Part shown: one piece after another, positions 8,266-46,400 of the stretch
How the letters are laid out: every line of letters starts with the position of its first letter
Position numbering within the stretch: the stretch's first letter is position 1
Source of the DNA: an uncultured Candidatus Saccharibacteria bacterium
Lineage (GTDB): Bacteria > Patescibacteriota > Minisyncoccia > Phycocordibacterales > UBA9973
NCBI GenBank assembly: GCA_964384645.1
Contig: CAYLKL010000003.1
Coordinates: 9,101 to 73,100 of the forward strand
Reading direction: 5' to 3'
DNA length: 64,000 nt
The notes under the pieces: generated by a model
Seen by the model: only the letters and a program-made list of their open reading frames with translations
Told to the model about the DNA's origin: nothing
Databases searched by the model: none
Position numbers and translations under genes: made by a program

Positions 8266-8267
8266 AA

Positions 8268-8708: not shown

Positions 8709-8713
8709 AAAAA

Positions 8714-9379: not shown

Positions 9380-9381
9380 AA

Positions 9382-9732: not shown

Positions 9733-9737
9733 AAGCC

Positions 9738-28315: not shown

Positions 28316-28735
28316 TTATTTAGCAGCTTTAGGTCTCTTTGCTCCGTATAGTGATCGACTCTTTCGTCTTGCGTCTACTCCTGTAGTATCAAGTCTTCCT
28401 CGAACGATGTGGTATCGAACTCCAATCAAGTCCTTAACACGACCTCCTCTAAGTATTACCACAGAGTGTTCTTGTAGGTTGTGTCCCATACCTGGAATAT
28501 AAGCTGTTACTTCTTGTCCATTTGTTAGTCTTACTCTAGCGATTTTTCGAACAGCTGAGTTAGGTTTCTTTGGTGTAGTTGTTGTTACTTTAGTACATAC
28601 CCCTCTCTTGAATGGAGATGGATAAAAAACCGGTCGGTTCTTCAAAGTATTGAAGCCACGACTAAGAGCAACAGTTCGTGTTGCTTTTTTTGATTTAGTT
28701 CTTGGTTTTTTTACTAATTGACTTATTCTTGCCAT
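28316..28735 (-). CDS. rpsL: 30S ribosomal protein S12
   Basis: [28 protein letters not shown]...[18 protein letters not shown]. The likely start is the ATG at 28735 (MARISQLV); the ORF track over-extends. Confidence 0.95.
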
Positions 28736-28764
28736 AAAAACAAAATGCACCGATGTGCCGAAAC

Positions 28765-28793
28765 ACTTTAACAAATATGTAGATTTTATGCAA
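28765..28793 (-). promoter_or_regulatory. Candidate sigma70 promoter of the str operon
   Basis: Minus strand reads TTGCAT (28788-28793), a 17-nt spacer, then TAAAGT (28765-28770). It lies ~30 nt upstream of the rpsL start. Confidence 0.35.
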
Positions 28794-28837: not shown

Positions 28838-31246
28838 TTAAACTACTGGCTCCTCTCCTGCATCAGGTGTGTCTGTTGGAGCGTCTCCCCCTTGATCAGA
28901 CCCATCATCTTGGGTATCTGGAGTCTGACCTCCATCACCCTCTGGTTGACCGCCATCATCAACAACGTCGCCACTATCTGTGCCTCCATTAGAATCCGAA
29001 TTAGTATCGACGTTACTTTGTTCTAAAATTTGCAAAAATTGATCTCGAGTGACACAAACATCTTCAACACAAAGTTCTTTGGTTGTTATTTTATCTGTAA
29101 TAATTTCTACAAAATTTACCACACCATTTATTGTCTTTTGAATTCCACTTTCTAAATATTCAACAACCGAAGATAAACTTAGACCACTATTTCCACCTCC
29201 AACATTCATTGAATCAACTTTTAGGTTCAAATCTTGGATAGATTTCACAATCAAAGGTGTAAGTTTTGAATAATCTACCATCCAATATTTATCCTCTTCT
29301 TCTGGAACCATAACAGCATCTGGGTACACTTCAAAAAGTTCCTGAGCAATCACACCGTGAGTTAATTTCTGACTAGGATCATTTTTCCAATTAAAATCTC
29401 GTATTTTTATGTCTAAAAGACTGTCCAAAGACAAATCTGTATCTTCAATGTTTTCCTTAAGCCTTTGGTCTGAAGTTGTATTGTAGGATGTTGCGTTTGA
29501 AGCAAAAGTAATTGAACCAATAGTTGGATTACCTAGTGGATGAAAATTTATAAGAGTAGTTGGAGTAACATCTGATGGATCATTTCCTGCCACAACTGTT
29601 ATACCGAGATTTCCTGCAACACCTGAGGTGTTTTCAAATTTCGCAACAGCAGTCACAGGAGCTCCTCCAACGCTTAAAATATTCCCATTATCTATACTTG
29701 TACCGATATTTACTTCGCCCATAACATTAGCAAGGTAAATCCGCCCAACAGATCCAGCGTTAGAACCTGTCCCGCCCGCACCAGGATTTACATATATATC
29801 ACCCCCGTCTCCAGCTGTGTCAGAGGCACCAGTGGAATTACCCCCATCGCCAGCCAAGATATTAACGTCTCCACCAAAACCACCCTGTGCAGCTATGAAA
29901 CCTTGTTCTTCTCCATTACCTCCATCTCCAGCAAATAAATTCAAATTACCGGCATAGCCACCATTTGCAGTATTACCTACCGCGGTTCCATTTCCACCGT
30001 CCCCAGTAGAAATTGTGACATCTTGTCCAGAAGTACCAGCGGTATCTGTGTTATCAGCTCCATTTCCAGCAGATGCAACGATTACACCATTAGAATCCAA
30101 ATAAATCTGCCCTTCTGCACTTGTAGAATTAATTGCTCTGAAAGCATATGTTCCAGCACCGTCACCTAAAACATCGAGCGTTGAATCTGGTGAACTTGTA
30201 CCGACTCCTAAAAAATTATTAGTACTATTGTAAAAAAGTTGTGGTTCACCTTTTGATAATTGTTTCTGTCCAGAATTAGAAGTCCAAAAAGCAACTTGTC
30301 CTTCGAGTTGTGTACCGACACCTCCTTGTGTCACATAAGTTGATGGAGTAATACTCGTGTAAGTAATATTACTAGTACCAAAAACTGGTGCGTCTGTTTC
30401 TTGAACCCATTGTTTACCTTTTATTGTCCAGTTTCCACCTTCTGTGGCAATCACTATTTGTGGCGACATTTCACTCGGCTCGTCTGCATCGGTTGTTCTT
30501 GTTAAAACATATGGTGAACCGCCACTACCTAAACTTGTCACGATATAAACACCATTTTGAGTTTGCGCAGATTGATTTTTAACCAAAAGCCTATCGCCCA
30601 CACCAAGACTAATCCCGTTTATATTAGGCAAGGCACCATTTGTCGATTTTGTTATTGTTGCTCCAACACCAGAGCTTCCATTATCATAAGTCACGCCAGA
30701 AAGAGCTGCCGCTGTCCCTGCTCTAACTATTGTTGGAGATACAACCAAGTCATCGAAGTTTGGTGTTGCTAACCATTGATTCCCTCTTATTGACTCAAAA
30801 ATAAATCCTTTTCTATTACTTGTTAGATAAACAGTTGTTGTTTCATTTATGTAATCTCCAGAATATGCGTCTACTGTGACAGTATTCGAAGCCGATGTTT
30901 TTAAAACAGTAATTTTCCTGCTTTCTGTTACCGAAGATATCTGAGGAAGCACAATATTTACATCACCGGCGGCTGTATCTGCATAAATAACCTGATCGGT
31001 AGATAAAATACTATAAGGACTATCTGAGTCGTCGACGGTTGTGAAATTAACAACAGCAGGAGCAACGGCAGTTGTACAGTTTGTATCACTCGGTCCACAA
31101 GTTGGATCGAGAGTTATACCCGGTAAATATTTTGTAGTTGGTGGAGCAGAAAAAACAGTCAGTGTAGTAGAAAATAAAATGAAAAACAAAAGTATACCTG
31201 CTACTTTTTTCCAAACACTATCTGTATTTATTAAAAACTTTATCAT
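28838..31246 (-). CDS. Secreted tail-fibre-like protein: Gly-rich beta-helix-like repeats plus a C-terminal intramolecular-chaperone autoprocessing (peptidase S74-like) domain and an acidic tail
   Basis: N-terminal signal anchor. Long GDGGNG / GxGG repeat region. ...TTSDQRLKENIEDTDLSLDSLL... matches the S-D-x-R-x-K-E-N-I start of phage tail-fibre/endosialidase chaperone domains (Ser ~residue 592, nt ~29471). C-terminal D/E/G/P-rich tail. Confidence 0.6.
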   Translation of the reverse strand: MIKFLINTDSVWKKVAGILLFFILFSTTLTVFSAPPTTKYLPGITLDPTCGPSDTNCTTAVAPAVVNFTTVDDSDSPYSILSTDQVIYADTAAGDVNIVLPQISSVTESRKITVLKTSASNTVTVDAYSGDYINETTTVYLTSNRKGFIFESIRGNQWLATPNFDDLVVSPTIVRAGTAAALSGVTYDNGSSGVGATITKSTNGALPNINGISLGVGDRLLVKNQSAQTQNGVYIVTSLGSGGSPYVLTRTTDADEPSEMSPQIVIATEGGNWTIKGKQWVQETDAPVFGTSNITYTSITPSTYVTQGGVGTQLEGQVAFWTSNSGQKQLSKGEPQLFYNSTNNFLGVGTSSPDSTLDVLGDGAGTYAFRAINSTSAEGQIYLDSNGVIVASAGNGADNTDTAGTSGQDVTISTGDGGNGTAVGNTANGGYAGNLNLFAGDGGNGEEQGFIAAQGGFGGDVNILAGDGGNSTGASDTAGDGGDIYVNPGAGGTGSNAGSVGRIYLANVMGEVNIGTSIDNGNILSVGGAPVTAVAKFENTSGVAGNLGITVVAGNDPSDVTPTTLINFHPLGNPTIGSITFASNATSYNTTSDQRLKENIEDTDLSLDSLLDIKIRDFNWKNDPSQKLTHGVIAQELFEVYPDAVMVPEEEDKYWMVDYSKLTPLIVKSIQDLNLKVDSMNVGGGNSGLSLSSVVEYLESGIQKTINGVVNFVEIITDKITTKELCVEDVCVTRDQFLQILEQSNVDTNSDSNGGTDSGDVVDDGGQPEGDGGQTPDTQDDGSDQGGDAPTDTPDAGEEPVV

Positions 31247-33345
31247 TATAAATTTATTTTGAACACTTCGTTTATGTAACCCTTGTTTGCATTTATAACG
31301 CCTGATTTGAATACTGTTTTATAAGATTCATCTGCCAATTTTTGGTCTATTTCAACATAATAATTTCCTTGTGGCATCAAACAATAATATTGTCCGTATT
31401 TATTTGCCACTTTTTTAGAAATCAAAGTCTGTGTATCAGAATTGTATACTTTTATTATAGCAAATGAGATAGGATTCCCTTCCACATCCAAAATTTTTCC
31501 AAAATTTTTCGTTTTTATACCTGTTTCTCTTAAAAATAGAAGAATTAGGTACAAGCAAAAGACTAAAATATTGTAAGTTGAAAAAGAGGAAAGAATTGCT
31601 AGACATGAAACTGTAAATCCAAAAGAAAAGAAAGAGTCAGAAAGCTTTGTCAAAAAAACATCTCTTTTTGAATAATACTTCATCAGTTTTTGATCTCGCT
31701 TTGCAAATTCATTCCAATCAAAACCAATTGGATCCATTGGGATATTCTTGATAATCACGTCACCTGCTCTACTTACCTCAAAAACATCTCCGAAATACAA
31801 ATCCAAATATATTTCATCACGAGTTTTTCCCACCAATTTAAGTGACGGGAAAGAATAGTGAGTCTTTTTGGGTAACAGTCTATATTTTCCAGGCTCAACT
31901 AAAAATCCATAACGCCCATCCATATCAGTTATTGAGGATTGAATTTCTTTTCCTTCCAAATCTTGAAGAGAAACCATAACAGGATCTAGTGGTTGTTTTG
32001 TAACTGCATCATAAACAGTCCCCCAAGGTCTTGCTCTTTTTTTAATTCCAAAAGCACTCATAAGGGCTGACCACAATCTATACGGCAACATCCAAATTTC
32101 AGTAAAAGAAAGTGGTGTACCGAAAAGTTTTGGAAGAACAGAGAAAATTGCACCGAACAAAATTCCAACAATTCCAATCATTTTAATTATAGGATTGCCA
32201 TAATCACTCGTGATTATTTCTTTCATTTCATCAAAAGCAGCCAAAAAAGTATCTATAGTGTAATCATAGGTATCGATTATTATGCACCAAATGACACCCA
32301 ATATACTTGTTTCGTATTCGCACCCTGTCAGTGGGTCGAAAACATCGTCATCGCTTGGATCTTCTTCGTCATCATCAGTGGGAGGGTTATCATCGTCGTC
32401 AATTGGGTCCAAATCATCTCCCGGGTCTTCTTCATCTACTGGAACATCCTCGTCTGTTGGATCTTCCTCTTCATCAACAGGATCATCATCGCCAGGAGAA
32501 GAACACAAAGAATTTTGTGGATTTAGTGTACAAAAATCACCACCGAAATTTAAAATTATAATCCCAGTATAAACGTCTCCTCTAGAATTATCTATTGCTC
32601 GATATTTAAGTTCATAGTCACCTAAACTAGGCGGTGTCCAAGGAATAGAAATAGAATTGGAATTATTTACCAAAGCAACTAGTACGTCATCTATATAAAT
32701 AAAAATCTTTAAAATTGAACCGTCCGGGTCAGTAGCGTTTGCCGAAAGAGTAACATTTTGTAAAGTTGCATAGTTGTTGACTGTGTTGGTCGGATTTAGA
32801 ACAGTAATAATTGGTAAAATATTGTCATTTCCACCCCCACCACCTCCGCCAGTAACAACTGTGTTTCTCCAACTTGTATTTACACAGGCATCAACAACAC
32901 CACAATCAAATTGTATCCAGCCATAATTTTGACTCCAAGCATAACCATCAAAATTTCCATTGCTATCTATGGTTACAGTTTGAGCAGATGAATTATCAAA
33001 CGGTCCGAAATTTACCCAGCCAGCGTTCTCTCCCCAGGCAAAACCAGAAAGAACACCGCTTGTGGTATTGCTCACCTTAAAATCACTACCTCCACAAGAA
33101 CTATTATTTGAACAATTTAAACTAATCCAACCAATATTTTCTCCCCAAATATAACCCGTGAGTTCGCTTGATGTTACCGTGACGTTTTTATCTGAGTTGG
33201 TCGTAAAATAACCAAAATTTATAATACTACTATCGCTCTCTAATTTTGCTTTGTAATTTACAGAGTCGATGTTTCCAACGGCAAAAATAAAACTAGAAGG
33301 AAATAAAAATAGTGTTAAAAATAAAATTTTTTTTAGAAATTTCAT
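31246..33345 (-). CDS. Large polytopic surface protein: signal peptide, three G[FY]AW..GW[IV].F repeats, Ig-like domain, D/E/P-rich acidic linker, TM helices and two carboxypeptidase-regulatory-like beta-sandwich domains
   Basis: Repeats TGYIWGENIGWISLNCS, SGFAWGENAGWVNFGP and DGYAWSQNYGWIQFDC. GGGGGGG run. ~45-aa acidic linker. Hydrophobic helices at ~residues 390-440 and 560-600. GTVYDAVTKQPLDPVMVSLQD...DGRYGF carboxypeptidase-regulatory-like motif. 1-nt overlap with the downstream gene and 4-nt overlap with the upstream M50 gene. Confidence 0.55.
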   Translation of the reverse strand: MKFLKKILFLTLFLFPSSFIFAVGNIDSVNYKAKLESDSSIINFGYFTTNSDKNVTVTSSELTGYIWGENIGWISLNCSNNSSCGGSDFKVSNTTSGVLSGFAWGENAGWVNFGPFDNSSAQTVTIDSNGNFDGYAWSQNYGWIQFDCGVVDACVNTSWRNTVVTGGGGGGGNDNILPIITVLNPTNTVNNYATLQNVTLSANATDPDGSILKIFIYIDDVLVALVNNSNSISIPWTPPSLGDYELKYRAIDNSRGDVYTGIIILNFGGDFCTLNPQNSLCSSPGDDDPVDEEEDPTDEDVPVDEEDPGDDLDPIDDDDNPPTDDDEEDPSDDDVFDPLTGCEYETSILGVIWCIIIDTYDYTIDTFLAAFDEMKEIITSDYGNPIIKMIGIVGILFGAIFSVLPKLFGTPLSFTEIWMLPYRLWSALMSAFGIKKRARPWGTVYDAVTKQPLDPVMVSLQDLEGKEIQSSITDMDGRYGFLVEPGKYRLLPKKTHYSFPSLKLVGKTRDEIYLDLYFGDVFEVSRAGDVIIKNIPMDPIGFDWNEFAKRDQKLMKYYSKRDVFLTKLSDSFFSFGFTVSCLAILSSFSTYNILVFCLYLILLFLRETGIKTKNFGKILDVEGNPISFAIIKVYNSDTQTLISKKVANKYGQYYCLMPQGNYYVEIDQKLADESYKTVFKSGVINANKGYINEVFKINL

Positions 33346-33965
33346 AAATTAAAACTTATGCCTGTCATTAAATTAAAAATCCAAAAAACTATAGGTGAAA
33401 TAACTGGCCAAATAAAGAAGACAACTATTATAAAAAGTGGCAATGTATAAGCGCTCGCAAGCTTTTCAAAACGACTAAATCTATCTGGTAACAATGAAAA
33501 AAGAATTCCTGATCCATCAAGCGGTGGAACTGGCACGGCATTAAATACTGCAAGTAAAATATTTAAAAATACAATTAAAGCTGATATTTCTATAATTGAC
33601 GATGGAAGAGCTATAAAAGCTGAAGACCTAATAACCATAGAAAAGAAAAACGCGATTAGAAGATTTACAACAATACCTGCTATTGAAACAAAGAACAGTG
33701 CTTTTTTTCTAATCTCTGGGGCGAAATTGGCAGAATTTACTGGAACAGGCTTTGCCCAACCAAACAAAAAGCCGGCATTTGTGACTACTAAAATTATAGG
33801 TAATAATATTGATCCAAAAAGATCTAAGTGTGGAATAGGATTTATTGTCAGCCGACCCGCCATTTTGGCAGTTTGATCACCAAATTTGAAAGCGACATAG
33901 CCGTGAGCGACTTCGTGCGCCACAACTGAAATAATAAGGATTAAAATGTAAAAAATAGAATCCAT
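33342..33965 (-). CDS. Site-2 protease family (peptidase M50) intramembrane Zn metalloprotease
   Basis: HEVAHG zinc motif in TM1 and the NAVPVPPLDGS (LDG) motif. Polytopic, 207 aa. Confidence 0.75.
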   Translation of the reverse strand: MDSIFYILILIISVVAHEVAHGYVAFKFGDQTAKMAGRLTINPIPHLDLFGSILLPIILVVTNAGFLFGWAKPVPVNSANFAPEIRKKALFFVSIAGIVVNLLIAFFFSMVIRSSAFIALPSSIIEISALIVFLNILLAVFNAVPVPPLDGSGILFSLLPDRFSRFEKLASAYTLPLFIIVVFFIWPVISPIVFWIFNLMTGISFNL

Positions 33966-34310: not shown

Positions 34311-35168
34311 CTAATTATCTAAATAAATTTTTTCCCCGTCGCTTATAAAAGTGATTATTCCAAAATCATAAGTCGCCAGACTTTTAATATTTAAAGCCTC
34401 AACCCTATCCATAACGTCTTTGTGCGGATGTCCGTATGTATTATTAAGTCCGGCTGAAATAATAACGACTTCGGGATCGACTGCTTTCAAAAATTCCATC
34501 GAAGAAGAAGTTTTTGAACCATGATGTCCTAATTTCAAAACATCCGATTCTATATTTTTAAAATTTTTTATTATTCTTTCTTCGTCTTCAATATAAGCAT
34601 CCCCCGTTAGCATGAATTCTGAATTTCCATACACCAACCGTCCGCAAATAGAAGCATCATTTGCTTCAACAAAAGAGACATCTGAATCGGGTGATAAAAT
34701 TTCAAAGCGCACATTTTTATCTTTGTCTAAATAAATATTTGTCCCCGCTCTAGCTAAAAAAGTTTTTATTCCTTTATTTTGAGCAATCTTTAAAATTTGA
34801 TTATAATTAGTGTTGTCGGCAATATTTCCAGAAATAAATAAAGAGCCAATATCATATTCTTGAATAATAGAAACCAAGCCACCAGAATGATCTTCGTCTG
34901 GATGTGTGACAACCAACACATCAATTCTATTATCAAAGCTATCCATCACCGAGTCTAATTTCTGTAACAATAAATCCCCTGACCTACCCCCGTCTATCAA
35001 CATATCAGTCTTCCCAAATGCCTTTATATAAATAGCGTCACCTTGACCAATATCTAAAAAAGAAACCTGTAGAGGGTATTCTTTTTTAAATTCCCTAATA
35101 GAAAGAAACCCTAAAATTACCAAAAGTAGAAATATTACAAAAATCTTGTTTTTCTTAATTCTTTCCAT
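34311..35168 (-). CDS. Stand-alone metallo-beta-lactamase domain protein of the ComEC C-terminal-domain type
   Basis: VLVVTHPDEDHSGGL (HxDxDH) plus downstream GHHGS and DAS motifs. N-terminal TM anchor. 285 aa. Confidence 0.65.
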   Translation of the reverse strand: MERIKKNKIFVIFLLLVILGFLSIREFKKEYPLQVSFLDIGQGDAIYIKAFGKTDMLIDGGRSGDLLLQKLDSVMDSFDNRIDVLVVTHPDEDHSGGLVSIIQEYDIGSLFISGNIADNTNYNQILKIAQNKGIKTFLARAGTNIYLDKDKNVRFEILSPDSDVSFVEANDASICGRLVYGNSEFMLTGDAYIEDEERIIKNFKNIESDVLKLGHHGSKTSSSMEFLKAVDPEVVIISAGLNNTYGHPHKDVMDRVEALNIKSLATYDFGIITFISDGEKIYLDN

Positions 35169-35775
35169 GAGTTATACTTCTTATGTTATGACACAATTTA
35201 ACCCAAAACAATTTAATATCCCTACTCTTATCGGTATAAGCGCTAAAAATATAGAAGAGCACACGAAACTCTATTTAGGCTATGTAAAACACGCTAATTT
35301 AATTCAAGAACATATAGAAGAATTGTCTAAAGATTCTGAAAAATATGCTTACGAACTTGGCGAAATAAATCGTCGATTTTCTTTTGAATTTAATGGAATG
35401 AGAAACCACGAAGTCTATTTTTCTCTTTTTGAAGATGGAGCAAAAGAATTAAACACAGATAGTTTGCTTTCAAAAGAAATCGAGAAAACTTTCGGAAGTT
35501 TTGATAATTTAATAAACAAATTTAAAGCTATTGCCATGACTCGCGGAATTGGCTGGGCAATGTTATCTTTGGATCTTGAAAACAAATCTTTAATCCTTCA
35601 TTGGCTAGATGAACAACATCTAGGTCAACTCCAAAATACAAAACCAATCGTCGCTCTTGATATGTGGGAACATTCATTTGTTTCTGATTATCAACCAAGT
35701 GGTAAAAAACAGTACGTTGAAGATTTCTTCAAAAATATAAACTGGACTGTCTCTGAAAAAAGATTCGAAGAATAA
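35146..35775 (+). CDS. Fe/Mn superoxide dismutase family protein (divergent)
   Basis: EEHTKLYLGYVKHAN, NGMRNHEVYF, RGIGWAMLSLD and ALDMWEHSFVSDY are collinear with the SOD HHTKHH / WNHTFYW / GSGWAWL / DVWEHAYY motifs, with metal ligands retained. The start is more likely the ATG at 35167 or 35188. Confidence 0.6.
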   Translation: MFFLILSMSYTSYVMTQFNPKQFNIPTLIGISAKNIEEHTKLYLGYVKHANLIQEHIEELSKDSEKYAYELGEINRRFSFEFNGMRNHEVYFSLFEDGAKELNTDSLLSKEIEKTFGSFDNLINKFKAIAMTRGIGWAMLSLDLENKSLILHWLDEQHLGQLQNTKPIVALDMWEHSFVSDYQPSGKKQYVEDFFKNINWTVSEKRFEE

Positions 35776-35822: not shown

Positions 35823-37526
35823 TTATTCTTTTATAAATCGCTTGGTCTTGTGACCAACAACTACAAAATAAAAACCAGGTTTAATTTTTGAAACATCAAT
35901 CACCTCTTCGATAGCACCGGCAGATTGTTCGATAACAACTTTACCTAATGGATCGATAACAGTAATGGTATCTCCTACTTTGATCTTTTCGATAACCAAA
36001 TGGTCGGTTGTCGGATTTGGGTAGATTTTTATATCACCCATATCATCCTGAAACGCTTCTGTACGGACTTCGGCATTATCAGTAACTTCTTCCTGTTTTT
36101 CATCCGCAGAAAGACGACAGCTTGCTCCAAGAGTAACATTGACCACAGTGGAAGTTCTAAGAACTCCATACTTGTTAGTAACGATAACCTTGTATTTACC
36201 GACAGTAGTAACAATTAAACTATTCCCGGTTGCTCCGGCAATAACGTTCCCATACTTCTTCCAAACATAAGTAGCGTTTGAATCATATGGAACAGAAAGA
36301 GTGACATCTTGTCCGGGACAGATAGTTGTACTACCAAGTATTGATACTGCAGCACTTGGCGCAGGATATGTGACACGAGTTAAAATCATGTCGTAAGTTG
36401 AACTCGGCATATATGCTCGTGAACGCATACCTACAAACACCCAACCTATACCTGCATTCCTTTGAGCAAGACCTGTAAAGACATAAGCTCCCGTACTATT
36501 AGTTGTTTCTTTCCTGACCCAAATTCTATTAAAATTTGGGGAGTACTCAGCACCATAAGCACCGGTTGTTGTATTGAAATTTCCAAACATTCCCGCAACA
36601 ACAAAACCAGCATAAGAGTCTTCCATCTGAACTATCGATCCAGCTTCTGTTGTCTGAAATATTCCTGATACATTACCAAGCAAATCAACACTGACAAAAG
36701 AAATAAGGCTAGTCGCAGCATCTTCTTTGAGTCCGACAAAAAGAGAATTTTCTCTTTCGCCAAAACACATTTCAGTTGCAGTGTAACCCAGTGGCAAAGC
36801 AGATGACCAAAGTGTACCCCCGGAAGCATCCAAACAATAAACCGTTTGAATAACATTCCAAGAAGGATCATATCCTCTTACAAGAACAAAAGAATTTCCA
36901 GCGATCGTTGGAGCAACCGAAGTTGCAGCAAAACCATTAAAAAATCTTGTCCAAGTAGGAACACCTAATAAATCAAGCTTTGTAACGAAAGCGTTTTGAC
37001 CCTGAGCAGGTATTCTGTCTGAGCTAAAACAAGATCCGGATAAAAATAAATTATTACCCAAAATCCTCAAGCTTATAGGATTATCGTGACCACTACCGGA
37101 GACATTTGTAAGAATCGTAGACCATAAAACATTTGCAGATGCATCTTTTTTATACAAAGAGATGTCTCCGTTATTTTGGTCTTTCGAATAAACAAAAAAT
37201 ACACCAGATTGATCAGAGACCGTCGCCATATCAGACGATACCGCAGACTGTGACACAAACGATGAATCAAACCCACGAATTGCACCGTTATTGTAAGTAG
37301 TACTCGAGACAACACCAATACTTCCAGTTCCTTTCGGAACTCTGAGCCCACCAACGTATGAGTTTGCACCCATTGTTGATATGACTGGATTAATGGTCGA
37401 TTCGGATGTATCTACTACAGCTTTTTTGAATGTAACGGCTGGAGATTGAGCATTTACTATTTCGGGGCAATATATACCCTGGATAAGTATAATCAATAAG
37501 ATCATAAGATATTTGATTGTTTTCAT
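35823..37526 (-). CDS. Secreted beta-rich protein with an Ig-like domain and a C-terminal Por_Secre_tail (T9SS-type sorting) domain
   Basis: Signal peptide. C-terminal DIKIYPNPTTDHLVIEKIKVGDTITVIDPLGKVVIEQSAGAIEEVIDVSKIKPGFYFVVVGHKTKRFIKE fits the T9SS CTD consensus (YPNP...I.D..G..V...........ID.S.L..G.Y.V.V....). Confidence 0.55.
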   Translation of the reverse strand: MKTIKYLMILLIILIQGIYCPEIVNAQSPAVTFKKAVVDTSESTINPVISTMGANSYVGGLRVPKGTGSIGVVSSTTYNNGAIRGFDSSFVSQSAVSSDMATVSDQSGVFFVYSKDQNNGDISLYKKDASANVLWSTILTNVSGSGHDNPISLRILGNNLFLSGSCFSSDRIPAQGQNAFVTKLDLLGVPTWTRFFNGFAATSVAPTIAGNSFVLVRGYDPSWNVIQTVYCLDASGGTLWSSALPLGYTATEMCFGERENSLFVGLKEDAATSLISFVSVDLLGNVSGIFQTTEAGSIVQMEDSYAGFVVAGMFGNFNTTTGAYGAEYSPNFNRIWVRKETTNSTGAYVFTGLAQRNAGIGWVFVGMRSRAYMPSSTYDMILTRVTYPAPSAAVSILGSTTICPGQDVTLSVPYDSNATYVWKKYGNVIAGATGNSLIVTTVGKYKVIVTNKYGVLRTSTVVNVTLGASCRLSADEKQEEVTDNAEVRTEAFQDDMGDIKIYPNPTTDHLVIEKIKVGDTITVIDPLGKVVIEQSAGAIEEVIDVSKIKPGFYFVVVGHKTKRFIKE

Positions 37527-37585: not shown

Positions 37586-39049
37586 CTATTTTGTCAAGTA
37601 AAAAACCCTTGTTTTATAAGCCCAAACAGCAATAATTCCATACAAGACTAACATTATAAATAGCCCGAAATCCTTGAAAACAAAGGCCGAAATTGATAAT
37701 CCCGAAATAAATTTAGAAATGCTTATAACTACCCTTAACCCAAAATCCACACCTATTACAAAAGGAAAGGCTAAAACCGGACTAACTACCCCCACTATTC
37801 CCCCAATAAAACCTAGTAGCATGATTACCGGAATTAGAGGCAAAACAACAATATTTGTAGGCACAGATAAAACAGAAAGGAGTCTAGTTTGGTAAAGAAT
37901 AATTGGCAAAACTGCAACTTGAGCAGCCAAAGATGTTGCAATTATTTCTTTCAAAAAATATGGCAATTTTGTGTACAAACTTTGTTGTATTTTTTTAGTA
38001 AATAAAATTATTCCTAATGTTGCCAAAACTGAAAGCTGAAATGAAAAATCAAAATAAATAAGCCGAGGATTTATTATGTTCATAACAAGTACAGCAATAA
38101 ATAAAGCCCGAAGAGACATATACATATTTCCAGAACGTAAAGCGATGAGAGATATTATGGCCATAATTCCCGCCCTAACTGCAGTGATAGGAACACCTGT
38201 CATTAGAATAAAAAGAATTATTGATACAACTGAAAAAACAGAACTAGTTTTAGCTCCTATATTTAAAAACAATGCTTTTACCCAAGAAGCAATAACTGTA
38301 ATATTATAACCAGACAAAGCAATAATATGAGTCAGACCTGCAATACGAAATGAGTCAGCCAAATCGCTACTTAAAATATTTTTACCAAACAAAATACCAG
38401 CAAATAAATTTTCAATATCTCCCCGCAATCTATCTGCAAAAGGTTCAATGAAATTATCCCTCAAAAGAAAAAGTTTTCTTCTAAAATTATTCTTATTACT
38501 CTCTACTTTTTCAATTTTTGTATCATAACTTAAATAAAAAATGTTTTTAGTCTTCAAAAATTCATCGTATTCAAATTCTGTATTTGTATCAGTTTTAAAA
38601 GGTTTTGGTTTCTCAAAATTACCCACCACAGAAAGAATGTCTCCGTGCAAAAAGTTTTCTCCTATATCCTTACTGTATAACAAAACATTTTCTTTAGTTT
38701 TTTGCCCATTTATTACTGGCTTACACTGAAATTTAAATTGATTATTCTTGTACTCAACATCACCTGATACTTGGCAACTTAGATATAATGGCGCTTTTCC
38801 TTCAATTTTAAGAGCAGAAACTCTATTGGAATTATCCAATTTGAAATAACCAAAGCCAAACAAAAATGAAAATAAAAATACAGCGATCAATCCAATTTCT
38901 GCTGATTTTCTTATTACTGCTAAAAATAAAATAGCAAAATTAATTGCTATTAAAATATAAATTTCTATATTTAAAATTGGTGAAAAAAACAGGCCAAATA
39001 AAAATCCAAAACCTAATATTAAAGATATTTTATTTAAATTTGCGCCCAT
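37586..39049 (-). CDS. comEC: Competence protein ComEC/Rec2 membrane channel domain, without the C-terminal MBL domain
   Basis: Polytopic. GLTHIIALSGYNITVIASW matches the ComEC competence-domain signature. 487 aa. Confidence 0.75.
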   Translation of the reverse strand: MGANLNKISLILGFGFLFGLFFSPILNIEIYILIAINFAILFLAVIRKSAEIGLIAVFLFSFLFGFGYFKLDNSNRVSALKIEGKAPLYLSCQVSGDVEYKNNQFKFQCKPVINGQKTKENVLLYSKDIGENFLHGDILSVVGNFEKPKPFKTDTNTEFEYDEFLKTKNIFYLSYDTKIEKVESNKNNFRRKLFLLRDNFIEPFADRLRGDIENLFAGILFGKNILSSDLADSFRIAGLTHIIALSGYNITVIASWVKALFLNIGAKTSSVFSVVSIILFILMTGVPITAVRAGIMAIISLIALRSGNMYMSLRALFIAVLVMNIINPRLIYFDFSFQLSVLATLGIILFTKKIQQSLYTKLPYFLKEIIATSLAAQVAVLPIILYQTRLLSVLSVPTNIVVLPLIPVIMLLGFIGGIVGVVSPVLAFPFVIGVDFGLRVVISISKFISGLSISAFVFKDFGLFIMLVLYGIIAVWAYKTRVFYLTK

Positions 39050-39744
39050 TCTTTTAGTAATTCAGATTCTTCTTCTTTTGAGTGTACTTTTCTAAATTTT
39101 GCACCATTCTTCCCCTTAACATCCTGCTCACAAGATTTCCAATCTTTATACGTTTTTAAAACACCAGCAACTAAACTAACATAAGAATAAGCTGGCCTTT
39201 TGTCGTTTGATTTTTTAATAGTCACCTTAAGGTCTTTTAAAATATCTTCATGTTTACTTTTTTCTCCCACAAAAAGAGTTATGCTCTTGTTATCAGCAAA
39301 AGCTTGAGCAATAATATCCGCTCTCTCATTTAAAATAACACCGGCGTGACCAGGAACTTTTTCCAATTTCAAACCTCTACTCTTAAGTCTAAAACAAATA
39401 CCAAATAAATCTTTCCAAATATCTTGATTTAAAACTATATTCCCCTCTTTTGTTTTCCATCCAGTTTTCTCCCAAGCAAACATCCAACCAGAAATACCAT
39501 TTACTACATAGGCTGAATCAGAAAAAATAACAATTTCACCATTATTCGTTCTGCTTTCAATTAATTCCAAACTTTTCAAAACAGCCATCATTTCCATTCT
39601 GTTGTTTGTAGTTTTGTCTTCTCTGCCACCTATCTCTAAAATCTTACCTTCTGAAAATAAAATAATTGCACCATACCCTCCAGGACCAGGATTTCCTCTA
39701 GATGCTCCGTCTGTATAAACAAGTATTTTATTTTCATTATTCAT
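39034..39744 (-). CDS. rnhA: Ribonuclease HI with an ~80-aa basic C-terminal extension
   Basis: VYTDGASRGNPGPGGYG...NNRMEMMAV...FSDSAYVVNG...PGHAGVILNERADIIA catalytic D-E-D-D pattern. Overlaps the comEC start by 16 nt. Confidence 0.85.
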   Translation of the reverse strand: MNNENKILVYTDGASRGNPGPGGYGAIILFSEGKILEIGGREDKTTNNRMEMMAVLKSLELIESRTNNGEIVIFSDSAYVVNGISGWMFAWEKTGWKTKEGNIVLNQDIWKDLFGICFRLKSRGLKLEKVPGHAGVILNERADIIAQAFADNKSITLFVGEKSKHEDILKDLKVTIKKSNDKRPAYSYVSLVAGVLKTYKDWKSCEQDVKGKNGAKFRKVHSKEEESELLKEWAQI

Positions 39745-39822: not shown

Positions 39823-42800
39823 TTAGAAAACTGAAACTCTGGTTATCGTAATTATTGGCGTTGAGGCCACTTCTGCACCCTGAGCGTTATATCCTTTTGC
39901 TTGATATTGAATATCTTTTGTTATAAGCCCTAACGGTCTCCATGTGCAGTTAAAATTAGGTGCAGAACTTGACGTACACTCTCTTGTCAATCCATTGTTA
40001 TACCTAAAATATTTTACCTTTGTTATTGGCCCGCCAACTGAAACTTTCATAGTGTAAACTTGGCCACTTTGTACAGTAAGGCCGTTTGTTGGGAAAACCC
40101 ATGAAATATAAGTTCCAGCTAAAACAGACACATTAACAGCAGTTGATGTCGAAGTATTGCCCACGGCGTCAATAGCGATAGCAGTTATTGTATGATTGCC
40201 ACCTGATGCCCCTGTAGTATCCCACGAAACACTATAAGGTGAAGTTGTGTCTATTCCAACAGACACACCGTCTACTTTGAATTCAACAGAAGCAATGCCT
40301 GAAGCGTCGGTTGCGTTTGCAGATAAGGTTACAGTTGTTCCTACTGCCACACTTGACCCGTCTATTGGTGCACTAATTGAAACAGTTGGAGGTGTTGTTT
40401 CTGGACCACAACTCCCCAAATTCAAATTAGAATTTTCAGTAAGTATGAATTTATCAAGTTGGAAGTTAGCTGAAAGTCCTGTGAATGTGAAAGTGTGCGC
40501 AGTGTTTGGGGTAACAGAAGAGAAAACGATAGGTGTACCTGCTTGGTTTTTGTTACACCAACCAAAAGTTGTTGAGTTTGAAGAAATTGTTTGAGCTGTA
40601 CCTGAATCTACTTTTACTGTAGCAGTTGATGTTCCAGTTGCTGATTTTGCGAAATACCATAGGTAATATGTTTTTGGAATAGAACCTGTTGCGTCTCTTG
40701 GTTCAAATTTGTAAGTTGTTGATCCAGTGCTTGGGTTTATGTAAGTTGTGAAGTTTGTGTAGTCTCCCGCTGGTGTACCTGCTGGAGTTGTAGTAGTTCT
40801 TGATGCAGAACCTGTGTCATAGACTTCTGCTTCAAAACTAAAGTCCTTTGACCAGTACCATGGGTGTGATGATTCGTGCCATGCGTCTAGTTGGTAAAAT
40901 ACTGGTGATGCTCCTGTTTTATCGTAGATGTAGGTGGAGCCTTGGCGTCTTGAATTAAATTTCAAAACTTCCCCAGAAAGATTTATGTTAACTGGTGCAA
41001 TTTCTGGAACAGCACCATCCATATTAGTATATTGATTTAAGTTAGTTGCAATTAAATATTTATTTACAGAATTATCTTTTCTAACAGTAGTAAATGCATC
41101 CATTCTTCCACTCTTGAAAGCGTAACCCGGAGTAGTACTAGAAGAAGCATAATCAAGAGGTAAATCACCAGTCATAACATTACTATTTTTATAGAAAGAA
41201 TCTACATAACTAAATACAGCTTGAGAATAAGAAGGTATCATATTCTGCCAAATTTTTTGAGCAGGCCAACCATCTTCACTTGTTCCAACTCGATTAAAAT
41301 ATCCAGTATGGAAAAATTCCGATCCCATATTGTTTACGTTTTTAGAAAGACCCAACCATTGACCAGGTGAAATATTTTGCTCAGCTTTCAAATCCCAACC
41401 TGGAGACATGTAAGCTCCGAAGAATTTATCTCCTGTTGCTTGTTGTCTGCCCATTACTTTTTGGATAAAGTACATACCGTTCCAAGCAGAAATTTTACTT
41501 CTCCAGTTAGATGGCCATCTTGGATAAAAGTCAGGCGTTGCATAGTATTGGCCATTTATAGGAGATTGCATTTTTCTTGCCTCACTCCACTTAAATCTTG
41601 TAGCTTCTTCGTATCCATCTACTGCGTACTCTAAATATTTTGAACCAGCAAGTCCTGGGATAGACAAAATTATATCTCTATATGTTTGATTGGCCATATC
41701 TGAAACGGTTTTCGCAACGTAAGACTGTGCATCCATTCCAGAAGAACTTATTGCAGAACTAACTGCTGGATCAGAATTTAGAGCATTTGTTTCGTACTTA
41801 ACTAAAATTTCACCATTCTCACTTATTAGATCAATTTTTGGTGCTGGCTTTGTTAATTGATTCACAACGCTATTAACCATACTTTTCATAGCATTTCCGT
41901 CTGGTGTGTATTGTGAAAACTGAGAACTAAGAGGTCTCCAAACTTTTGAAGTTGTTACGTTTCCGTTTATATCAATAAACTGACCAGAAGAATTTTGTAA
42001 ATAATACTGGTTTCCAAATCCTTGGTACCTCAAACAAGGCATATTAGATCCACCTCCACAAGTTGAAGCACCTGAAAGCTGAGCTCTTAAAATAACCAAC
42101 TGAGTTGGTAAAGTTGGATTTGAATTTGAATAACTTATCAATCCAGGTGTCCCTGAAACACCTGTGTCCAAGTTACTACTTGTAAGACTTGGAGCTAGAT
42201 CTAAATAATAATTCCATTTCTTTGCCATTTCACCCGCGATTGAAACTCCAGCCTGAACTTGAGCAGCTGAGTGCGTGTAAGTAAAATCTGTTGGTGTAAA
42301 GTGTGCTAAATAATCTAGGTCGTTCCAGTTAAAATTTCTAAGTAATGTATGCCCTGTTTTATATCTAGGCAATGGAACACTTTGAAGTTGAGTTAACACA
42401 GTTGGTGGTGTTGTTGAATATGTTGTGTAAGGAGAAGTTCCAAGCTGTGCTCCTGGCAAATAATCCATTGTGTCAAAAGATGACGAAACAGCTTGAGCAT
42501 TTGGGGTATTTGTAATATTTGTTACCCAAGAATAAGACTGTCCGTTTGTTATTGAATCTAAATAGTGCTGATATATTAGGTTACCAGGCAAATCATTACT
42601 CCATAGTGCAAATTGATCTATTGCACCAACATATCTTCTTTCGGCGGTACTGTTACCAAAAAACTTTATGTCACCGTTTGAAGATTTTATTTTATTAGTA
42701 TTCGCAACTGTTTTTGAAAAACCAGTTGGCAAAACTCCATCAACCCAAATTTCTTTTACTCCATTTGAGTATTTAAAAACCATATGATGCCAATTACCGT

Positions 42801-43362
42801 CGTTGTAATATGCTGGAGATTTTGGCCCAACTCCATCTAAGGCAATTTGGAAATCGTCTGAAACTGAATTTGTACCAGTAGTTCCAGTTGTTGAAAATCT
42901 AATATAAGGAACAGAAGTACTTGCTACAGGACTCTCAAATAAGATAGAAAAAGAATTATCAGTAGTTGTCATAAAATTTGAAACCAATATGTCGTCAGGT
43001 TTCCAAATAAATTCAACAGCAAAAGAAGAAGAAGCTGAAGTTGGTGTTTTCCCAATTGTTTGATAACAACCAGAACTGCTTGTATAGTTCAAATACTTCC
43101 CAACTGGACCATTTGATTGTTGAACAAATGGACAACTCGTCCCATTTGTAAATGTCGAAGATCCGATGGTCGCAGAGTTCCAAGGATTTCCTTCAAATTG
43201 CCAGTACGAATAAGGCTGAATCGGAGTTGTTACAGCGTTATACGTTGCAGCCAACTGTCCCCCAAAAAATCTAGATAAATTAAATGGAGACAAAAAATCT
43301 ATAACTAATAAAATTACTAATAATAATACAACTGATAAAATTAAACTCTTTTTCTTTTTCAT
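39823..43362 (-). CDS. Giant surface protein 1 (1179 aa): signal anchor, LamG/concanavalin-A-like domain, large conserved central domain, C-terminal Ig-like domains
   Basis: N-terminal TM. DGNWHHMVF LamG-type motif. C-terminal ...VTLSANATDASGIASVEFKVDGVSVGIDTTSPYSVSWDT Ig-like repeats. Paralog of the downstream gene. Confidence 0.6.
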   Translation of the reverse strand: MKKKKSLILSVVLLLVILLVIDFLSPFNLSRFFGGQLAATYNAVTTPIQPYSYWQFEGNPWNSATIGSSTFTNGTSCPFVQQSNGPVGKYLNYTSSSGCYQTIGKTPTSASSSFAVEFIWKPDDILVSNFMTTTDNSFSILFESPVASTSVPYIRFSTTGTTGTNSVSDDFQIALDGVGPKSPAYYNDGNWHHMVFKYSNGVKEIWVDGVLPTGFSKTVANTNKIKSSNGDIKFFGNSTAERRYVGAIDQFALWSNDLPGNLIYQHYLDSITNGQSYSWVTNITNTPNAQAVSSSFDTMDYLPGAQLGTSPYTTYSTTPPTVLTQLQSVPLPRYKTGHTLLRNFNWNDLDYLAHFTPTDFTYTHSAAQVQAGVSIAGEMAKKWNYYLDLAPSLTSSNLDTGVSGTPGLISYSNSNPTLPTQLVILRAQLSGASTCGGGSNMPCLRYQGFGNQYYLQNSSGQFIDINGNVTTSKVWRPLSSQFSQYTPDGNAMKSMVNSVVNQLTKPAPKIDLISENGEILVKYETNALNSDPAVSSAISSSGMDAQSYVAKTVSDMANQTYRDIILSIPGLAGSKYLEYAVDGYEEATRFKWSEARKMQSPINGQYYATPDFYPRWPSNWRSKISAWNGMYFIQKVMGRQQATGDKFFGAYMSPGWDLKAEQNISPGQWLGLSKNVNNMGSEFFHTGYFNRVGTSEDGWPAQKIWQNMIPSYSQAVFSYVDSFYKNSNVMTGDLPLDYASSSTTPGYAFKSGRMDAFTTVRKDNSVNKYLIATNLNQYTNMDGAVPEIAPVNINLSGEVLKFNSRRQGSTYIYDKTGASPVFYQLDAWHESSHPWYWSKDFSFEAEVYDTGSASRTTTTPAGTPAGDYTNFTTYINPSTGSTTYKFEPRDATGSIPKTYYLWYFAKSATGTSTATVKVDSGTAQTISSNSTTFGWCNKNQAGTPIVFSSVTPNTAHTFTFTGLSANFQLDKFILTENSNLNLGSCGPETTPPTVSISAPIDGSSVAVGTTVTLSANATDASGIASVEFKVDGVSVGIDTTSPYSVSWDTTGASGGNHTITAIAIDAVGNTSTSTAVNVSVLAGTYISWVFPTNGLTVQSGQVYTMKVSVGGPITKVKYFRYNNGLTRECTSSSAPNFNCTWRPLGLITKDIQYQAKGYNAQGAEVASTPIITITRVSVF
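40407..40951. repeat. Copy A of an intragenic duplicated block (identical to 45627-46171)
   Basis: 40432-40951 is 100% identical to 45652-46171 at a constant offset of 5220. Near-identity extends back to ~40261 / 45481. Confidence 0.9.
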
Positions 43363-43440: not shown

Positions 43441-46400
43441 TTATTTAACTTTAATATTTTTTGTTGTTGTATTTCCGGCAACATCAACCGCTTGAACATT
43501 TATTGTAGAAGTTCCAAACCCCCACAACACAGACGGAACCGTAAAGCTGCAACTGTAAGAACTTGGTGGTGTTGTTGCACTTGTAAGTGTACATTTTGGA
43601 GTAGTAGATGTTGCACCCAAGAAGAATTTAACTTGCTTTACAGAAACATTATCTGTAACTGTTGCTATAAATGTTACAGGACTTGTGTTTGATACATTTG
43701 CGTTATTAGCGGGACTTGTGATTGAAACAGTCGGAGCAGTCGTGTCTGCCACTGTTGTTGAAATAGATACTGAAACAGCTGAAGAAGTAGAAGAATTTCC
43801 AGCATTGTCAGTTGCAATTGCAGTAATTGTATGACTTCCAGAAGTAAATCCTGTAGTGTTCCAAGAAATACTATACGGTGAAGTGGTTAATGTTGATCCA
43901 TATTGATTTCCATCAATATAAATTTTGACATTTTGTATACCAGAAGCATCACTTGCGTTCGCTGTTATTGTAGTATTAGATCCACCAGTCACTACAACTC
44001 CGTTAGCTGGACTTGTAATTGAAACAGTTGGAGCGGATGTATCAGTTCCCACTGTGATAGTTTCGGAAGTTGTATTATTTGCCTCATTTACTTCAGCAAA
44101 TCTATTAATATCATCAACAACCGCCGTTATGTTATGTGAACCGCCGGTCGCGTTCCATGCTGTAAATATACCAGTATCCGCTGACTGATTTGAACAATAA
44201 GCAGAGCCTGTACCCATACCAAGATTTACAGTTTTTCCAGCTCCAATTGAAGTTGTTTGAGCGTCTGAACAACCCAAAGCTACTCCATCCATCATAAACA
44301 TAACACCAACAACCATACCTTCTGGAGTGCCAACTGTTCCCTGGTTTTTAACAGTTGCAGTAAATGAAACATTTGCACCAACACTAGGACTTACAGGTGA
44401 CCAAACAATATCAGTCACAAGAACATCTGGTTGTCCTGTTGCATTTGAAACAGTCACTGAAACATTTGCTGAAGTTGCATTGTTTCCAGCTGCATCAAAT
44501 GCTTTTGCTTTTACTGTATGTGTTCCGTTTGAAAGAGTTGAACTATCTAATGTAACAGAATATGGAGCAGATGTATCAGTGGCAAAGGGTGATGTTGATG
44601 AATCAGTAAAGAACTGAACAGTAGTAACCCCAACATTATCACTCGCATTTGCACTAACGGTAACTAAACCTGAAACAGTTGCACTAGGTGTTGGTGCGGT
44701 AACTGAAACAGTTGGTGCAGTTGTGTCTGCGGGTGGTGTTGTTACGTTGTTTACCGTAACACCAAAGGCTGTAGTTGTTGTTGAGTTTGAACCTGGAACA
44801 GTAACTTTGTCGTAAGCTTTTGCTGTAATTTGATAACTACCGTTTGCAACACCTGTTGTATTCCAAGAACAAGAAAATGTTCCTGATGTTTGCCCCGTAG
44901 CTGTTGCTGTACAAATTAGAACTGTTCCTCTGTAAAACTCTATATGATTTATTCCAGTTGTGTCTGTTGCAGAAGCTGTCATTGTAACAGTGCCAGAAAG
45001 TGTTGCTCCAGAAACTGGAGAAGTTACCGTCGTCGAAGGACCCGCAGTATCAATATTTATTGATACTTGATTTGAAGCTGATGAAAAATTACCAGAACTA
45101 TCTTTTGATTTAACAATATACGTATGACTAGCATTTGCTGACGGTGTGTCTGTATAACCAAGGTTTGTTACAGCGCTTGTATTAATAGCAGTTGTAGAAC
45201 CATCTCTATATATATAGTAACCTTCAAGACCTGAACCAGAATCAGTTGATCCACCCCAAGATAAAACCGCACTGTTTGATTGTCTTGTAACAGAAAGTGT
45301 TGTTGGTGTTGTTGGAGCAACTGTGTCAGGAAGAGAAACTGTAATACTAACTGAAGAGTTTGCAGTATTACCAACAGTGTCAGTAGCTGTCGCTGTTATT
45401 TGATGTGAGCCATTCGTAACACCCGTTAGTGACCACGAAACACTATAAGGTAAAGTTGTGTCTATTCCAACAGATACACCGTCTACTTTGAATTCAACAG
45501 AAGCAATGCCTGAAGCGTCGGTTGCGTTAGCCGACAGAGTCGCTGGTCCAGTAGAAATTGTTGCTCCAGTTGTTGGCGCAGTAACTGAAACAGTTGGTGC
45601 TATTGTGTCAGTTGGAGTAGTTCCACCACAACTCCCCAAATTCAAATTAGCATTTTCAGTAAGTATGAATTTATCAAGTTGGAAGTTAGCTGAAAGTCCT
45701 GTGAATGTGAAAGTGTGCGCAGTGTTTGGGGTAACAGAAGAGAAAACGATAGGTGTACCTGCTTGGTTTTTGTTACACCAACCAAAAGTTGTTGAGTTTG
45801 AAGAAATTGTTTGAGCTGTACCTGAATCTACTTTTACTGTAGCAGTTGATGTTCCAGTTGCTGATTTTGCGAAATACCATAGGTAATATGTTTTTGGAAT
45901 AGAACCTGTTGCGTCTCTTGGTTCAAATTTGTAAGTTGTTGATCCAGTGCTTGGGTTTATGTAAGTTGTGAAGTTTGTGTAGTCTCCCGCTGGTGTACCT
46001 GCTGGAGTTGTAGTAGTTCTTGATGCAGAACCTGTGTCATAGACTTCTGCTTCAAAACTAAAGTCCTTTGACCAGTACCATGGGTGTGATGATTCGTGCC
46101 ATGCGTCTAGTTGGTAAAATACTGGTGATGCTCCTGTTTTATCGTAGATGTAGGTGGAGCCTTGGCGTCTTACTTTGAATTTCAAATTTTCTGTTGGTGT
46201 AACTGTTGTTGCAGGATATGTATCACCACCAAAAGATATGTCAGCTAGTGATTCTTCTGCGGCATTACCTTGATAATTTGACCAAGGGTTTTCCATACCT
46301 GTTATGACAAATCTATTAGCACTGTTTTGCTTTCTGGCAACAACAAGTTGGCCAGGATTTCCAGTATAAAATCTAAATCCAGGATTTGAGTCTGGCGGGT

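Follow-up and report, generated by a model that had tools for sequence, protein, structure and literature searches.

Results

Organization of the Locus

The window analyzed here is a stretch of 64,000 nucleotides (nt) from an uncultured Candidatus Saccharibacteria bacterium of the Patescibacteria (contig CAYLKL010000003.1). On its minus strand three open reading frames (ORFs) span positions 33965-28838 and encode a 207-amino acid (aa) M50 site-2 protease (S2P; 33342..33965), a 699-aa membrane protein (31246..33345) and an 802-aa predicted secreted fibre with phage tail-fibre modules (28838..31246). The protease and membrane-protein genes overlap by 4 nt (ATGA; the junction reads ...TTATGAAA), and the membrane-protein and fibre genes share a single nucleotide (the A of TAATG; the junction reads ...TTATAATGATA). 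Directly downstream lie rpsL, rpsG and fusA. The rpsL gene (28316..28774, minus strand; Pfam Ribosom_S12_S23), the first gene of the str operon, starts 63 nt downstream of the fibre gene and marks the downstream edge of a conserved block, of which rpmB (ribosomal protein L28; 34012..34254, plus strand), divergent from the protease gene, forms the upstream edge. A sequence-only reading of this DNA had described three tightly overlapping genes beside the str operon, and coordinates, junctions and flanking genes bear this out.

A Predicted Secreted Fibre With a Putative S74 Chaperone Domain

The 802-aa protein starts with a charged stretch followed by a hydrophobic core of about 20 residues. This putative signal peptide or anchor (residues 1-34) and the adjoining Cys-loop motif (residues 35-60; YxPGxTLDPxCxPxDxNC) are encoded at 31067..31246 (minus strand, as are all features of the three genes) and form the proposed attachment end. 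A globular middle domain (residues 171-305; 30332..30736) matches phrog_8745 and phrog_30390, and is followed by a hypervariable, Gly-rich shaft or distal region (residues 306-591; 29474..30331; 20% Gly). Overall, PHROG tail-fibre families match residues 171-313 and 308-681, with the tail-fibre family phrog_5668 covering residues 308-678. Residues 266-443 of the Legionella phage LME-1 tail fibre (PDB 9efk) align with residues 177-356 of the 802-aa protein (E = 5.6e-17). In the LME-1 virion this protein (orf22) is present as six trimers on a T7-like tail (PMC12407071). Only the middle module is common to the two proteins, and the N-terminal tail-attachment part and the distal parts are unrelated.

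The C-terminal region contains a predicted Peptidase_S74 chaperone domain (residues 592-735; 29042..29473). Residues 592-645 match positions 1-57 of the 58 positions of the Pfam profile PF13884 with 51.6 bits (cut-off 22) in a hidden Markov model (HMM) search, so that the S74 start noticed earlier in this C-terminus stands. The sequence SDQRLK at residues 592-597 places Ser592 at the start of the domain and Lys597 at +5, and the cut is predicted N-terminal to Ser592. It is the HMM score together with the Ser/Lys motif, and not a structural match, that supports the assignment to the S74 family. The same combination of a Ser and a Lys at +5 is found in the endosialidase and tail-fibre chaperones (K1F endoNF, 3GW6; T5 pb1, 4UW8; PF13884, MEROPS S74), and as in phage S74 proteins the domain comes after a Gly-rich fibre region that matches tail-fibre PHROGs. 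Self-cleavage of S74 domains has been demonstrated for the K1F endosialidase and for the Bdellovibrio protein Bd3182, and is abolished by a Ser-to-Ala substitution (PMC10769870). In contrast to the phage S74 proteins, the protein described here is cellular, has a secretion leader and no virion part, and carries a 67-aa acidic tail after the domain. This low-complexity, Gly-rich tail (residues 736-802; 28841..29041; 45% D/E/G), with a predicted local distance difference test (pLDDT) score below 50, gave no tblastn match in the related loci L001-L003 or L014.

An iterated search found S74 in 22 of 26 neighbouring fibres of related loci, and 19 of these 22 show the S...K(+5) motif at the expected position; in the L002 fibre a pattern search also located SDQRLK. 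Two of the four fibre genes without S74 are cut by the end of the fetched sequence, and two encode complete proteins, in L074 and L027 (329 aa, 378-1364). In six related fibres (L011, L016, L029, L042, L047 and L048) a conserved Cys pair lies just ahead of the cleavage Ser, in the pattern C-T-[IL]-x3-T-G-x2-C-[TS]-S-D-E-[RN]-L-K, which suggests a disulphide loop at the cleavage site of those proteins; the pattern is absent from the window fibre. The motif-bearing L088 fibre (7917-9935), which lies beside a GW-dockerin protein, is without S74 and shows a sub-threshold match to Peptidase_G2 (17.6 bits, E = 0.0026), the other autoprocessing intramolecular chaperone family of phage appendages.

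Full-length homologues of the fibre are rare: among 5.8 billion sequences we found only four, one 94% and three 47-53% identical. These closest relatives are unnamed, and the remoter matches are named "hypothetical protein" or "Chaperone of endosialidase".

As phage tail-fibre families give the best matches to the middle domain, the shaft and the chaperone domain alike, we considered whether the gene could be the surviving tail-fibre gene of a prophage, a tailocin or a contractile injection system. Neither partner gene matches a PHROG, the flanks consist of ribosomal and other housekeeping genes, and none of the neighbours checked is a phage gene, in line with the sequence-only reading. The fibre gene carries a secretion leader, which is absent from virion proteins, and the same type of locus is kept across a class of bacteria. 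No close relative of the fibre was found in 2.9 million viral contigs. The GC content of the window is about 36%, and the locus shows no compositional break with its surroundings. Housekeeping flanks, secretion leader, viral-contig null result and lack of other phage genes effectively refute a phage remnant, to which we assign next to no probability. Leader, modular layout and putative S74 domain together make it quite probable that the 802-aa protein is instead a self-cleaving surface fibre.

The Membrane Protein Combines a GW-Repeat Domain With a Conserved Polytopic Half

In the 699-aa membrane protein a signal peptide is followed by a GW-repeat domain, an Ig domain, an acidic linker and a part with four helices and two transthyretin-like domains. 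The GW-repeat ectodomain (residues 23-160; 32866..33279), the proposed fibre docking site, contains three G[YF]xW[GS]xNxGW[IV] repeats of about 35 aa that begin at residues 64, 101 and 134, and in the AlphaFold2 (AF2) model they form one compact domain (pLDDT 89-97). Residues 23-160 have no Pfam or NCBIfam match at E<=0.1, the Listeria-type GW module included, and for lack of a model match the identity with that module was rejected. Of the earlier description as GW-type repeats the repeats themselves thus hold, and the known cell-wall module does not. Similar to the GW modules of Listeria and Staphylococcus and to the clostridial ChW repeats, these are extracellular repeats with conserved Gly-Trp in surface proteins. 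In contrast to both, they match neither Pfam family and have a repeat of about 35 aa with a signature of its own. Judged by sequence comparison, they are a separate repeat domain for which no model exists.

This domain is widespread. Of 1.84 billion cluster representatives, 5,544 were found by a phmmer search with it at E<=1e-3; these proteins are 191-3269 aa long and contain up to 20 matched stretches. In the eight proteins scanned no Pfam model lies over the GW domain, and extracellular modules such as TSP3, PKD and IPTL-CTERM often accompany it.

Elsewhere in the window, an 817-aa ORF (54690-57143, minus strand) without Pfam match shows a weak match to the GW-domain profile (E = 1e-5) and is possibly a further GW-repeat protein; the 494-aa protein encoded next to it (53150-54634, minus strand) has no Pfam match either. 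The window also encodes a 912-aa VirD4/TraG-like coupling ATPase (2325-5063, minus strand) with DUF87 and TraG-D_C matches, and on an unrelated contig (L118, 99-3899) the gene of a 311-aa GW-only protein immediately precedes a similar TraG-like gene (914 aa). From this arrangement, a tie of GW proteins to the type IV secretion machinery of Patescibacteria seems possible as well.

After the GW domain comes a Big_7 Ig-like domain (residues 178-245; 32611..32814; PF17957, 28.2 bits, cut-off 24.1), which by sequence matches the solved bacterial immunoglobulin B1 domain 9kvu (E = 2.4e-4); in a Foldseek search with the membrane protein 9kvu is found at rank 28 (E = 0.025). The acidic linker (residues 285-339; 32329..32493) consists for 75% of D/E/P, has a pLDDT below 50 and is the most variable part of the protein. 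The conserved C-terminal half (31255..32193) comprises two helix pairs (residues 385-431 and 560-608), a CarboxypepD_reg domain (residues 442-539) and a transthyretin-like domain (residues 616-697). CarboxypepD_reg (PF13620) matches in two stretches (46.6 bits, cut-off 32.3), and the CarboxypepD_reg and transthyretin-like domains have a beta-sandwich fold. The Ig-like and carboxypeptidase-regulatory-like domains and the D/E/P linker recognized earlier are therefore all present.

Across the class the C-terminal half is 45-55% identical, with matches to E of about 1e-125 and 33 invariant residues in an alignment of 110 sequences. Relatives of the membrane protein were found in 419 GTDB species genomes. 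The records of the listed relatives, bar some that are obviously mislabelled, are Paceibacteria/Nomurabacteria-type Patescibacteria metagenome-assembled genomes, which places the window in a bacterium of the candidate phyla radiation (CPR). The relatives are annotated as "carboxypeptidase-like regulatory domain-containing protein" or "hypothetical protein".

The Fibre Gene as an Optional Cassette

In total, 115 related loci were compared. The six-frame ORFs of 80 membrane-protein loci and of the contigs L001-L003 were searched with the window proteins. The loci of the three fibre homologues of about 50% identity share the order of the window, with M50, membrane protein and fibre between rpmB and rpsL, and PF00830 is matched by the rpmB orthologues in L001 and L003. 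The three-gene arrangement therefore recurs where the fibres are 47-53% identical. The identity to these close relatives differs greatly along the locus. It is highest for the ribosomal proteins L28 (100%) and S12 (97%), the C-terminal half of the membrane protein (92-96%) and M50 (91-93%), followed by the GW domain (84-99%) and the Ig domain and linker (47-88%). Within the fibre it decreases from the leader and motif (72-82%) and the chaperone domain (67-71%) to the middle domain (48-60%) and the Gly-rich shaft (30-37%). By these identities, the fibre is by far the fastest-evolving gene of the locus.

Over the wider set the recurrent layout is a metallo-beta-lactamase (MBL) gene, rpmB on the opposite strand, M50, zero to two fibre genes, the membrane-protein gene, again zero to two fibre genes, and rpsL, with rpmB beside M50 in most loci. 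In the Paceibacteria, M50 and the membrane protein are a conserved pair between rpmB and rpsL. The fibre gene, in contrast to the fixed third member proposed earlier, is an optional cassette, which can lie before or after the membrane-protein gene and sometimes occurs twice. The GW domain is present in 59 loci, of which 22 have fibre genes (12 before and 10 after the membrane-protein gene) and 48 have M50 upstream of the membrane-protein gene; seven of the 11 GW-positive loci without M50 have at least 545 nt of upstream sequence. Nearly all flank fibre genes (26/27) directly adjoin the membrane-protein gene or an adjoining fibre gene (<=150 nt), the exception being the second copy in L036. None of 24 paralogues without GW domain has a fibre neighbour (Fisher p = 2e-4). 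In L066 (5430-17131) the membrane-protein/fibre pair lies between rpsG and fusA, apart from M50, an unusual break in one of the most conserved bacterial operons. In L051 the pair is found beside unrelated genes, without M50.

The fibres themselves are alike only at their N-termini: 25 of 26 share no more than the leader and the motif [FY]A-x(2-6)-[YF]xPGxTLDPxCxPG[DE]xNCxV, after which the sequence is unrelated. A profile search with this motif brought up nothing but short fragments and thus yielded no family size. Where two fibres occur in the same genome (L016, 2132-7942; L067, 9894-14582; L036, 5671-7950 and 13937-14488), the two are 67-99% identical over the first 75 residues and 18-48% identical beyond, compared with a median identity of 33% for N-termini from different genomes. 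Near-identical 5' ends on unrelated bodies look like a cassette system or gene conversion. A constant N-terminus on a swappable body is also seen in phage tail fibres that plug into a fixed baseplate site and in the fibres of Bdellovibrio discussed below.

Linkage of Fibre and GW Domain Beyond the str Operon

In the reverse direction, metagenome contigs were scanned for the N-terminal motif of the fibre, which gave 31 genuine loci; L115 was excluded as a high-GC false positive. A gene for a GW domain or a C-terminal half is adjacent in nine of these (L085, L088, L089, L099, L101, L105, L106, L108 and L109). M50 is present in one of the 31 (L099), where the order is rpmB, a stand-alone C-terminal half, M50 and fibre. 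L088/89, L101, L105/106 and L108/109 contain no M50, rpmB or rpsL. The GW proteins of L088, L105/106 and L108/109 are complete and without the polytopic half (the genes in L089 and L101 are cut by the contig end), and they carry alternative anchors: a dockerin (L088), two PG_binding_1 domains (L105) or a single C-terminal helix (L108). In L117 a fibre with a weak S74 match is followed by a 404-aa GW protein and then by rpsL; this GW protein is without the C-terminal half, and no anchor was identified in it. Rather than to the three-gene set, to which it had first been assigned, the fibre is thus linked to the GW ectodomain as its consistent partner, even without M50 and the str operon. Judged by gene neighbourhood, the linkage of the fibre follows the GW ectodomain and does not follow M50. 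That the GW domain is the dock of the fibre is possible, though we put it at somewhat less than an even chance.

Fibre and membrane-protein genes could also merely share a permissive spot by the str operon, the fibre being held by its uncleaved leader or by the wall and the membrane protein being unrelated to it. Fibres are present in only 22 of the 59 loci, in variable number and position, and motif-bearing fibres without GW neighbour exist (L086 and the second copy in L036). The hydrophobic core of the fibre leader, about 20 residues, is enough to span a membrane. The str operon is highly expressed, and no terminator-like site was seen between the fibre gene and rpsL on the minus strand, so that the placement could serve expression; the promoter and terminator scans were at chance level and are therefore uninformative on operon boundaries. 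Against a co-location without interaction, the pairing of GW and fibre recurs outside the str region with quite different GW architectures (L088, L101, L105 and L108), the GW-less paralogues are without any fibre neighbour, and flank fibre genes directly adjoin the membrane-protein gene or each other in all but one case. We consider this explanation unlikely.

The M50 Protease and Its Relation to the Membrane Protein

The product of the 207-aa ORF, labelled "Zn-dependent protease" in the sources, matches Peptidase_M50 (PF02163) with 49.1 bits (cut-off 27.2) and is a small site-2 protease without PDZ or CBS domain. The HEVAH zinc-binding motif (residues 17-21; 33903..33917) and the NAVPVPPLDG motif (residues 142-151; 33513..33542), of which the Asp is the third zinc ligand, align with HELGH and FNLIPAFPMDG of mjS2P (3B4R), the nearest solved relative (E = 1.3e-5). 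The earlier identification of an M50/S2P protease by its HEVAH and LDG motifs was therefore correct. Like the S2P of Methanocaldococcus jannaschii, the protein combines HExxH and NxxPxxxxDG in a core of about six helices and is of similar length (207 versus 224 aa). In contrast to 3B4R, its gene has a fixed place beside the gene of a polytopic beta-sandwich membrane protein. We know of no substrate for either protease. To our knowledge such a pairing is undescribed for characterized S2Ps, and we found no paper on it.

The sequence-only reading had suggested that the membrane protein may undergo regulated intramembrane proteolysis. In such a module a contact would be sensed by the fibre or the ectodomain, the membrane protein clipped, and one of its helices then cut by M50 in order to signal or to remodel the anchor. 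The metal site of the protease is intact, and M50 is located directly upstream of the membrane-protein gene, or separated from it by fibre genes only, in 48 of 59 loci, with a 4-nt overlap in the window. In L099 a stand-alone C-terminal half lies beside M50 in the opposite order. The second helix, the most conserved stretch of the membrane protein, has invariant Pro421, Arg423 and Trp425 and near-invariant Pro411 and Glu416; helix-breaking residues are typical of S2P substrates. The adjacency in two orders together with the conserved second helix makes some functional tie plausible.

However, the whole stretch from rpmB through M50 and the membrane protein to rpsL is syntenic across the class, and as this region is generally conserved, the adjacency of M50 may be a mere inherited order. 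M50 is absent from seven loci that do have upstream sequence, the membrane-protein/fibre pair persists without it (L051 and L066), and a single one of the 31 fibre-motif loci contains it. Pfam recognized no anti-sigma, DNA-binding or other effector domain in the membrane protein, which even if cut would remain tethered through helices 3 and 4. The indications on topology conflict as well. Two tight helix hairpins in the AF2 model (residues 385-409/414-431 and 560-586/590-608), combined with an exported N-terminus, would place both beta-sandwich domains outside, whereas about 15 Lys/Arg flank these domains versus 1-3 on the other side of the membrane, which by the positive-inside rule argues for a location inside. 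What supports cleavage of the partner by S2P is thus a conserved adjacency that is inseparable from the conservation of the rpmB...rpsL region, and we regard regulated proteolysis at this locus as distinctly unlikely.

Flanking Genes and Other Features of the Window

Upstream of the three genes lie, beyond the divergent rpmB, an MBL-fold gene (34311-35168, minus strand), a superoxide dismutase (SOD) gene and genes for a Por_Secre_tail protein, ComEC and RNase H. If its first TTG is taken as the start, the SOD ORF (35146-35775, plus strand) shares 23 nt with the 5' end of the MBL-fold gene; the true start is probably further downstream. The 567-aa protein encoded at 35823-37526 (minus strand), and also in L001 (2134-3753), ends in a C-terminal Por_Secre_tail domain (E = 2.4e-10). 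This domain is the C-terminal sorting signal of type IX secretion, a system known from the Bacteroidota, whose cells have an outer membrane. That such a signal is present and conserved in a Patescibacteria genome is odd. The RNase H protein (39034-39744, minus strand; 236 aa) extends for about 90 residues past its RNase H domain, and 16 nt of its gene are shared with the start of the ComEC gene. Giant surface-type proteins of 1179 aa (39823-43362) and 1725 aa (43441-48618), encoded side by side on the minus strand, both have Big_7 Ig repeats, the second with additional Big_13, Big_3_3 and CARDB domains, and together with the fibre locus they make this an envelope-protein-rich stretch.

No tRNA genes or Rfam matches were found in the window. 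PADLOC gave no defence-system matches, and an anti-phage defence system was rejected on this basis.

Discussion

In our best reading, phage tail-fibre modules make up the 802-aa protein, which would serve as an adhesive fibre on the cell surface and has a layout like that of the mosaic adhesive trimer (MAT) fibres of Bdellovibrio bacteriovorus. MAT fibres are chromosomally encoded and consist of a signal peptide, a constant N-terminal module and a mosaic trimeric body (PMC10769870, Caulton et al., 2024). Of 21 MAT fibres 13 end in S74, for which self-cleavage has been shown experimentally, for example in Bd3182, and the surface partner of the conserved N-terminal domain is not known (PMC10769870).

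Similar to the MAT fibres, the fibre described here is encoded by a chromosomal, non-phage gene and has a putative signal peptide, a short constant N-terminal motif, a phage-like swappable body and a C-terminal S74 domain with SDxxxK. Some members are without S74 in both groups (here L074, L105 and L108), and both come from bacteria that recognize other cells, as is presumed for the Patescibacteria fibre. There are also clear differences. The constant element is a Cys-loop peptide of about 20 aa, in contrast to the beta-rich constant N-domain of about 130 aa in MAT fibres, and the cell is a presumed single-membrane Patescibacteria cell, in contrast to a Gram-negative predator. Unlike MAT genes, the fibre gene is tightly linked to the gene of a putative GW-domain anchor protein and has an S2P neighbour, and for the fibre described here cleavage and surface location are predicted. 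A PDB search gave no sequence match of the fibre to the solved MAT tip fragments at E<=1. We claim this resemblance for architecture and not for common descent.

Taken together, we are inclined, if by a modest degree, to see in this locus a self-cleaving surface fibre docked on a GW-domain anchor. The fibre would be exported by the Sec pathway via its N-terminal signal peptide. From its family membership, the S74 domain (residues 592-735) would nucleate the folding of the trimer and then cut itself off before Ser592, using Lys597, which would leave a mature fibre of about 555 residues. Gene linkage suggests that the Cys-loop peptide (residues ~35-60) could bind the GW ectodomain (residues 23-160) and so hold the fibre on the cell, with the GW domain attached to the envelope through the particular anchor of its protein, presumably the polytopic half in this genome. 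Lifestyle and evolutionary rate are consistent with a role of the fast-evolving middle and Gly-rich parts in binding a target cell, most plausibly, for a Patescibacteria cell, the surface of a host microbe. M50 would stand outside this fibre/GW core and may act on a helix of the membrane protein or on signal anchors.

Several points weigh against this interpretation. No fibre is adjacent in 37 of the 59 GW-positive loci, and for at least one fibre (L086) the 3.6-5 kb to each side contain no GW gene. The AF2 monomer of the fibre has a mean pLDDT of 56, too low for a fold search with the whole model to be meaningful, and is confident only in the middle domain (80-94) and the chaperone domain (75-91 over residues ~600-690). 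The top Foldseek PDB match of the fibre is indeed the 3GW6 chaperone, but the match is weak (E = 0.47, 55-57 columns at 3.8-4.2 A), because only a monomer was modelled. Instead of a fibre, the GW domain could bind the cell wall or a glycan, and if the leader is kept as an anchor a docking partner becomes unnecessary. The role in host attachment is pure inference.

A more far-reaching version of the docking reading is conceivable, in which the GW domain is a dedicated socket that receives phage-derived adhesive trimers via their Cys-loop, and is fused to a polytopic module that works with the S2P to relay host contact. We consider this version very unlikely. If true, the locus would be both a host-contact sensor and an attachment organelle of CPR bacteria, with interchangeable fibres that set the host range, and the GW socket would supply the anchor that is still missing for MAT-like fibres.

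We found no paper on S74 or tail-fibre-like surface proteins in CPR bacteria. The analysis brings forward two large families for which we found no functional description, the GW-repeat domain and the polytopic double beta-sandwich module that is paired with a minimal S2P. How CPR bacteria recognize their hosts is an open question, for which type IV pili have been the main candidates studied so far. The locus provides a second, testable candidate, which offers a hypervariable fibre resembling phage receptor-binding proteins, a constant attachment end and a genetically linked candidate for the anchor. Since close relatives carry sharply different fibre cassettes, these could mark, or themselves determine, the host range in metagenomes.

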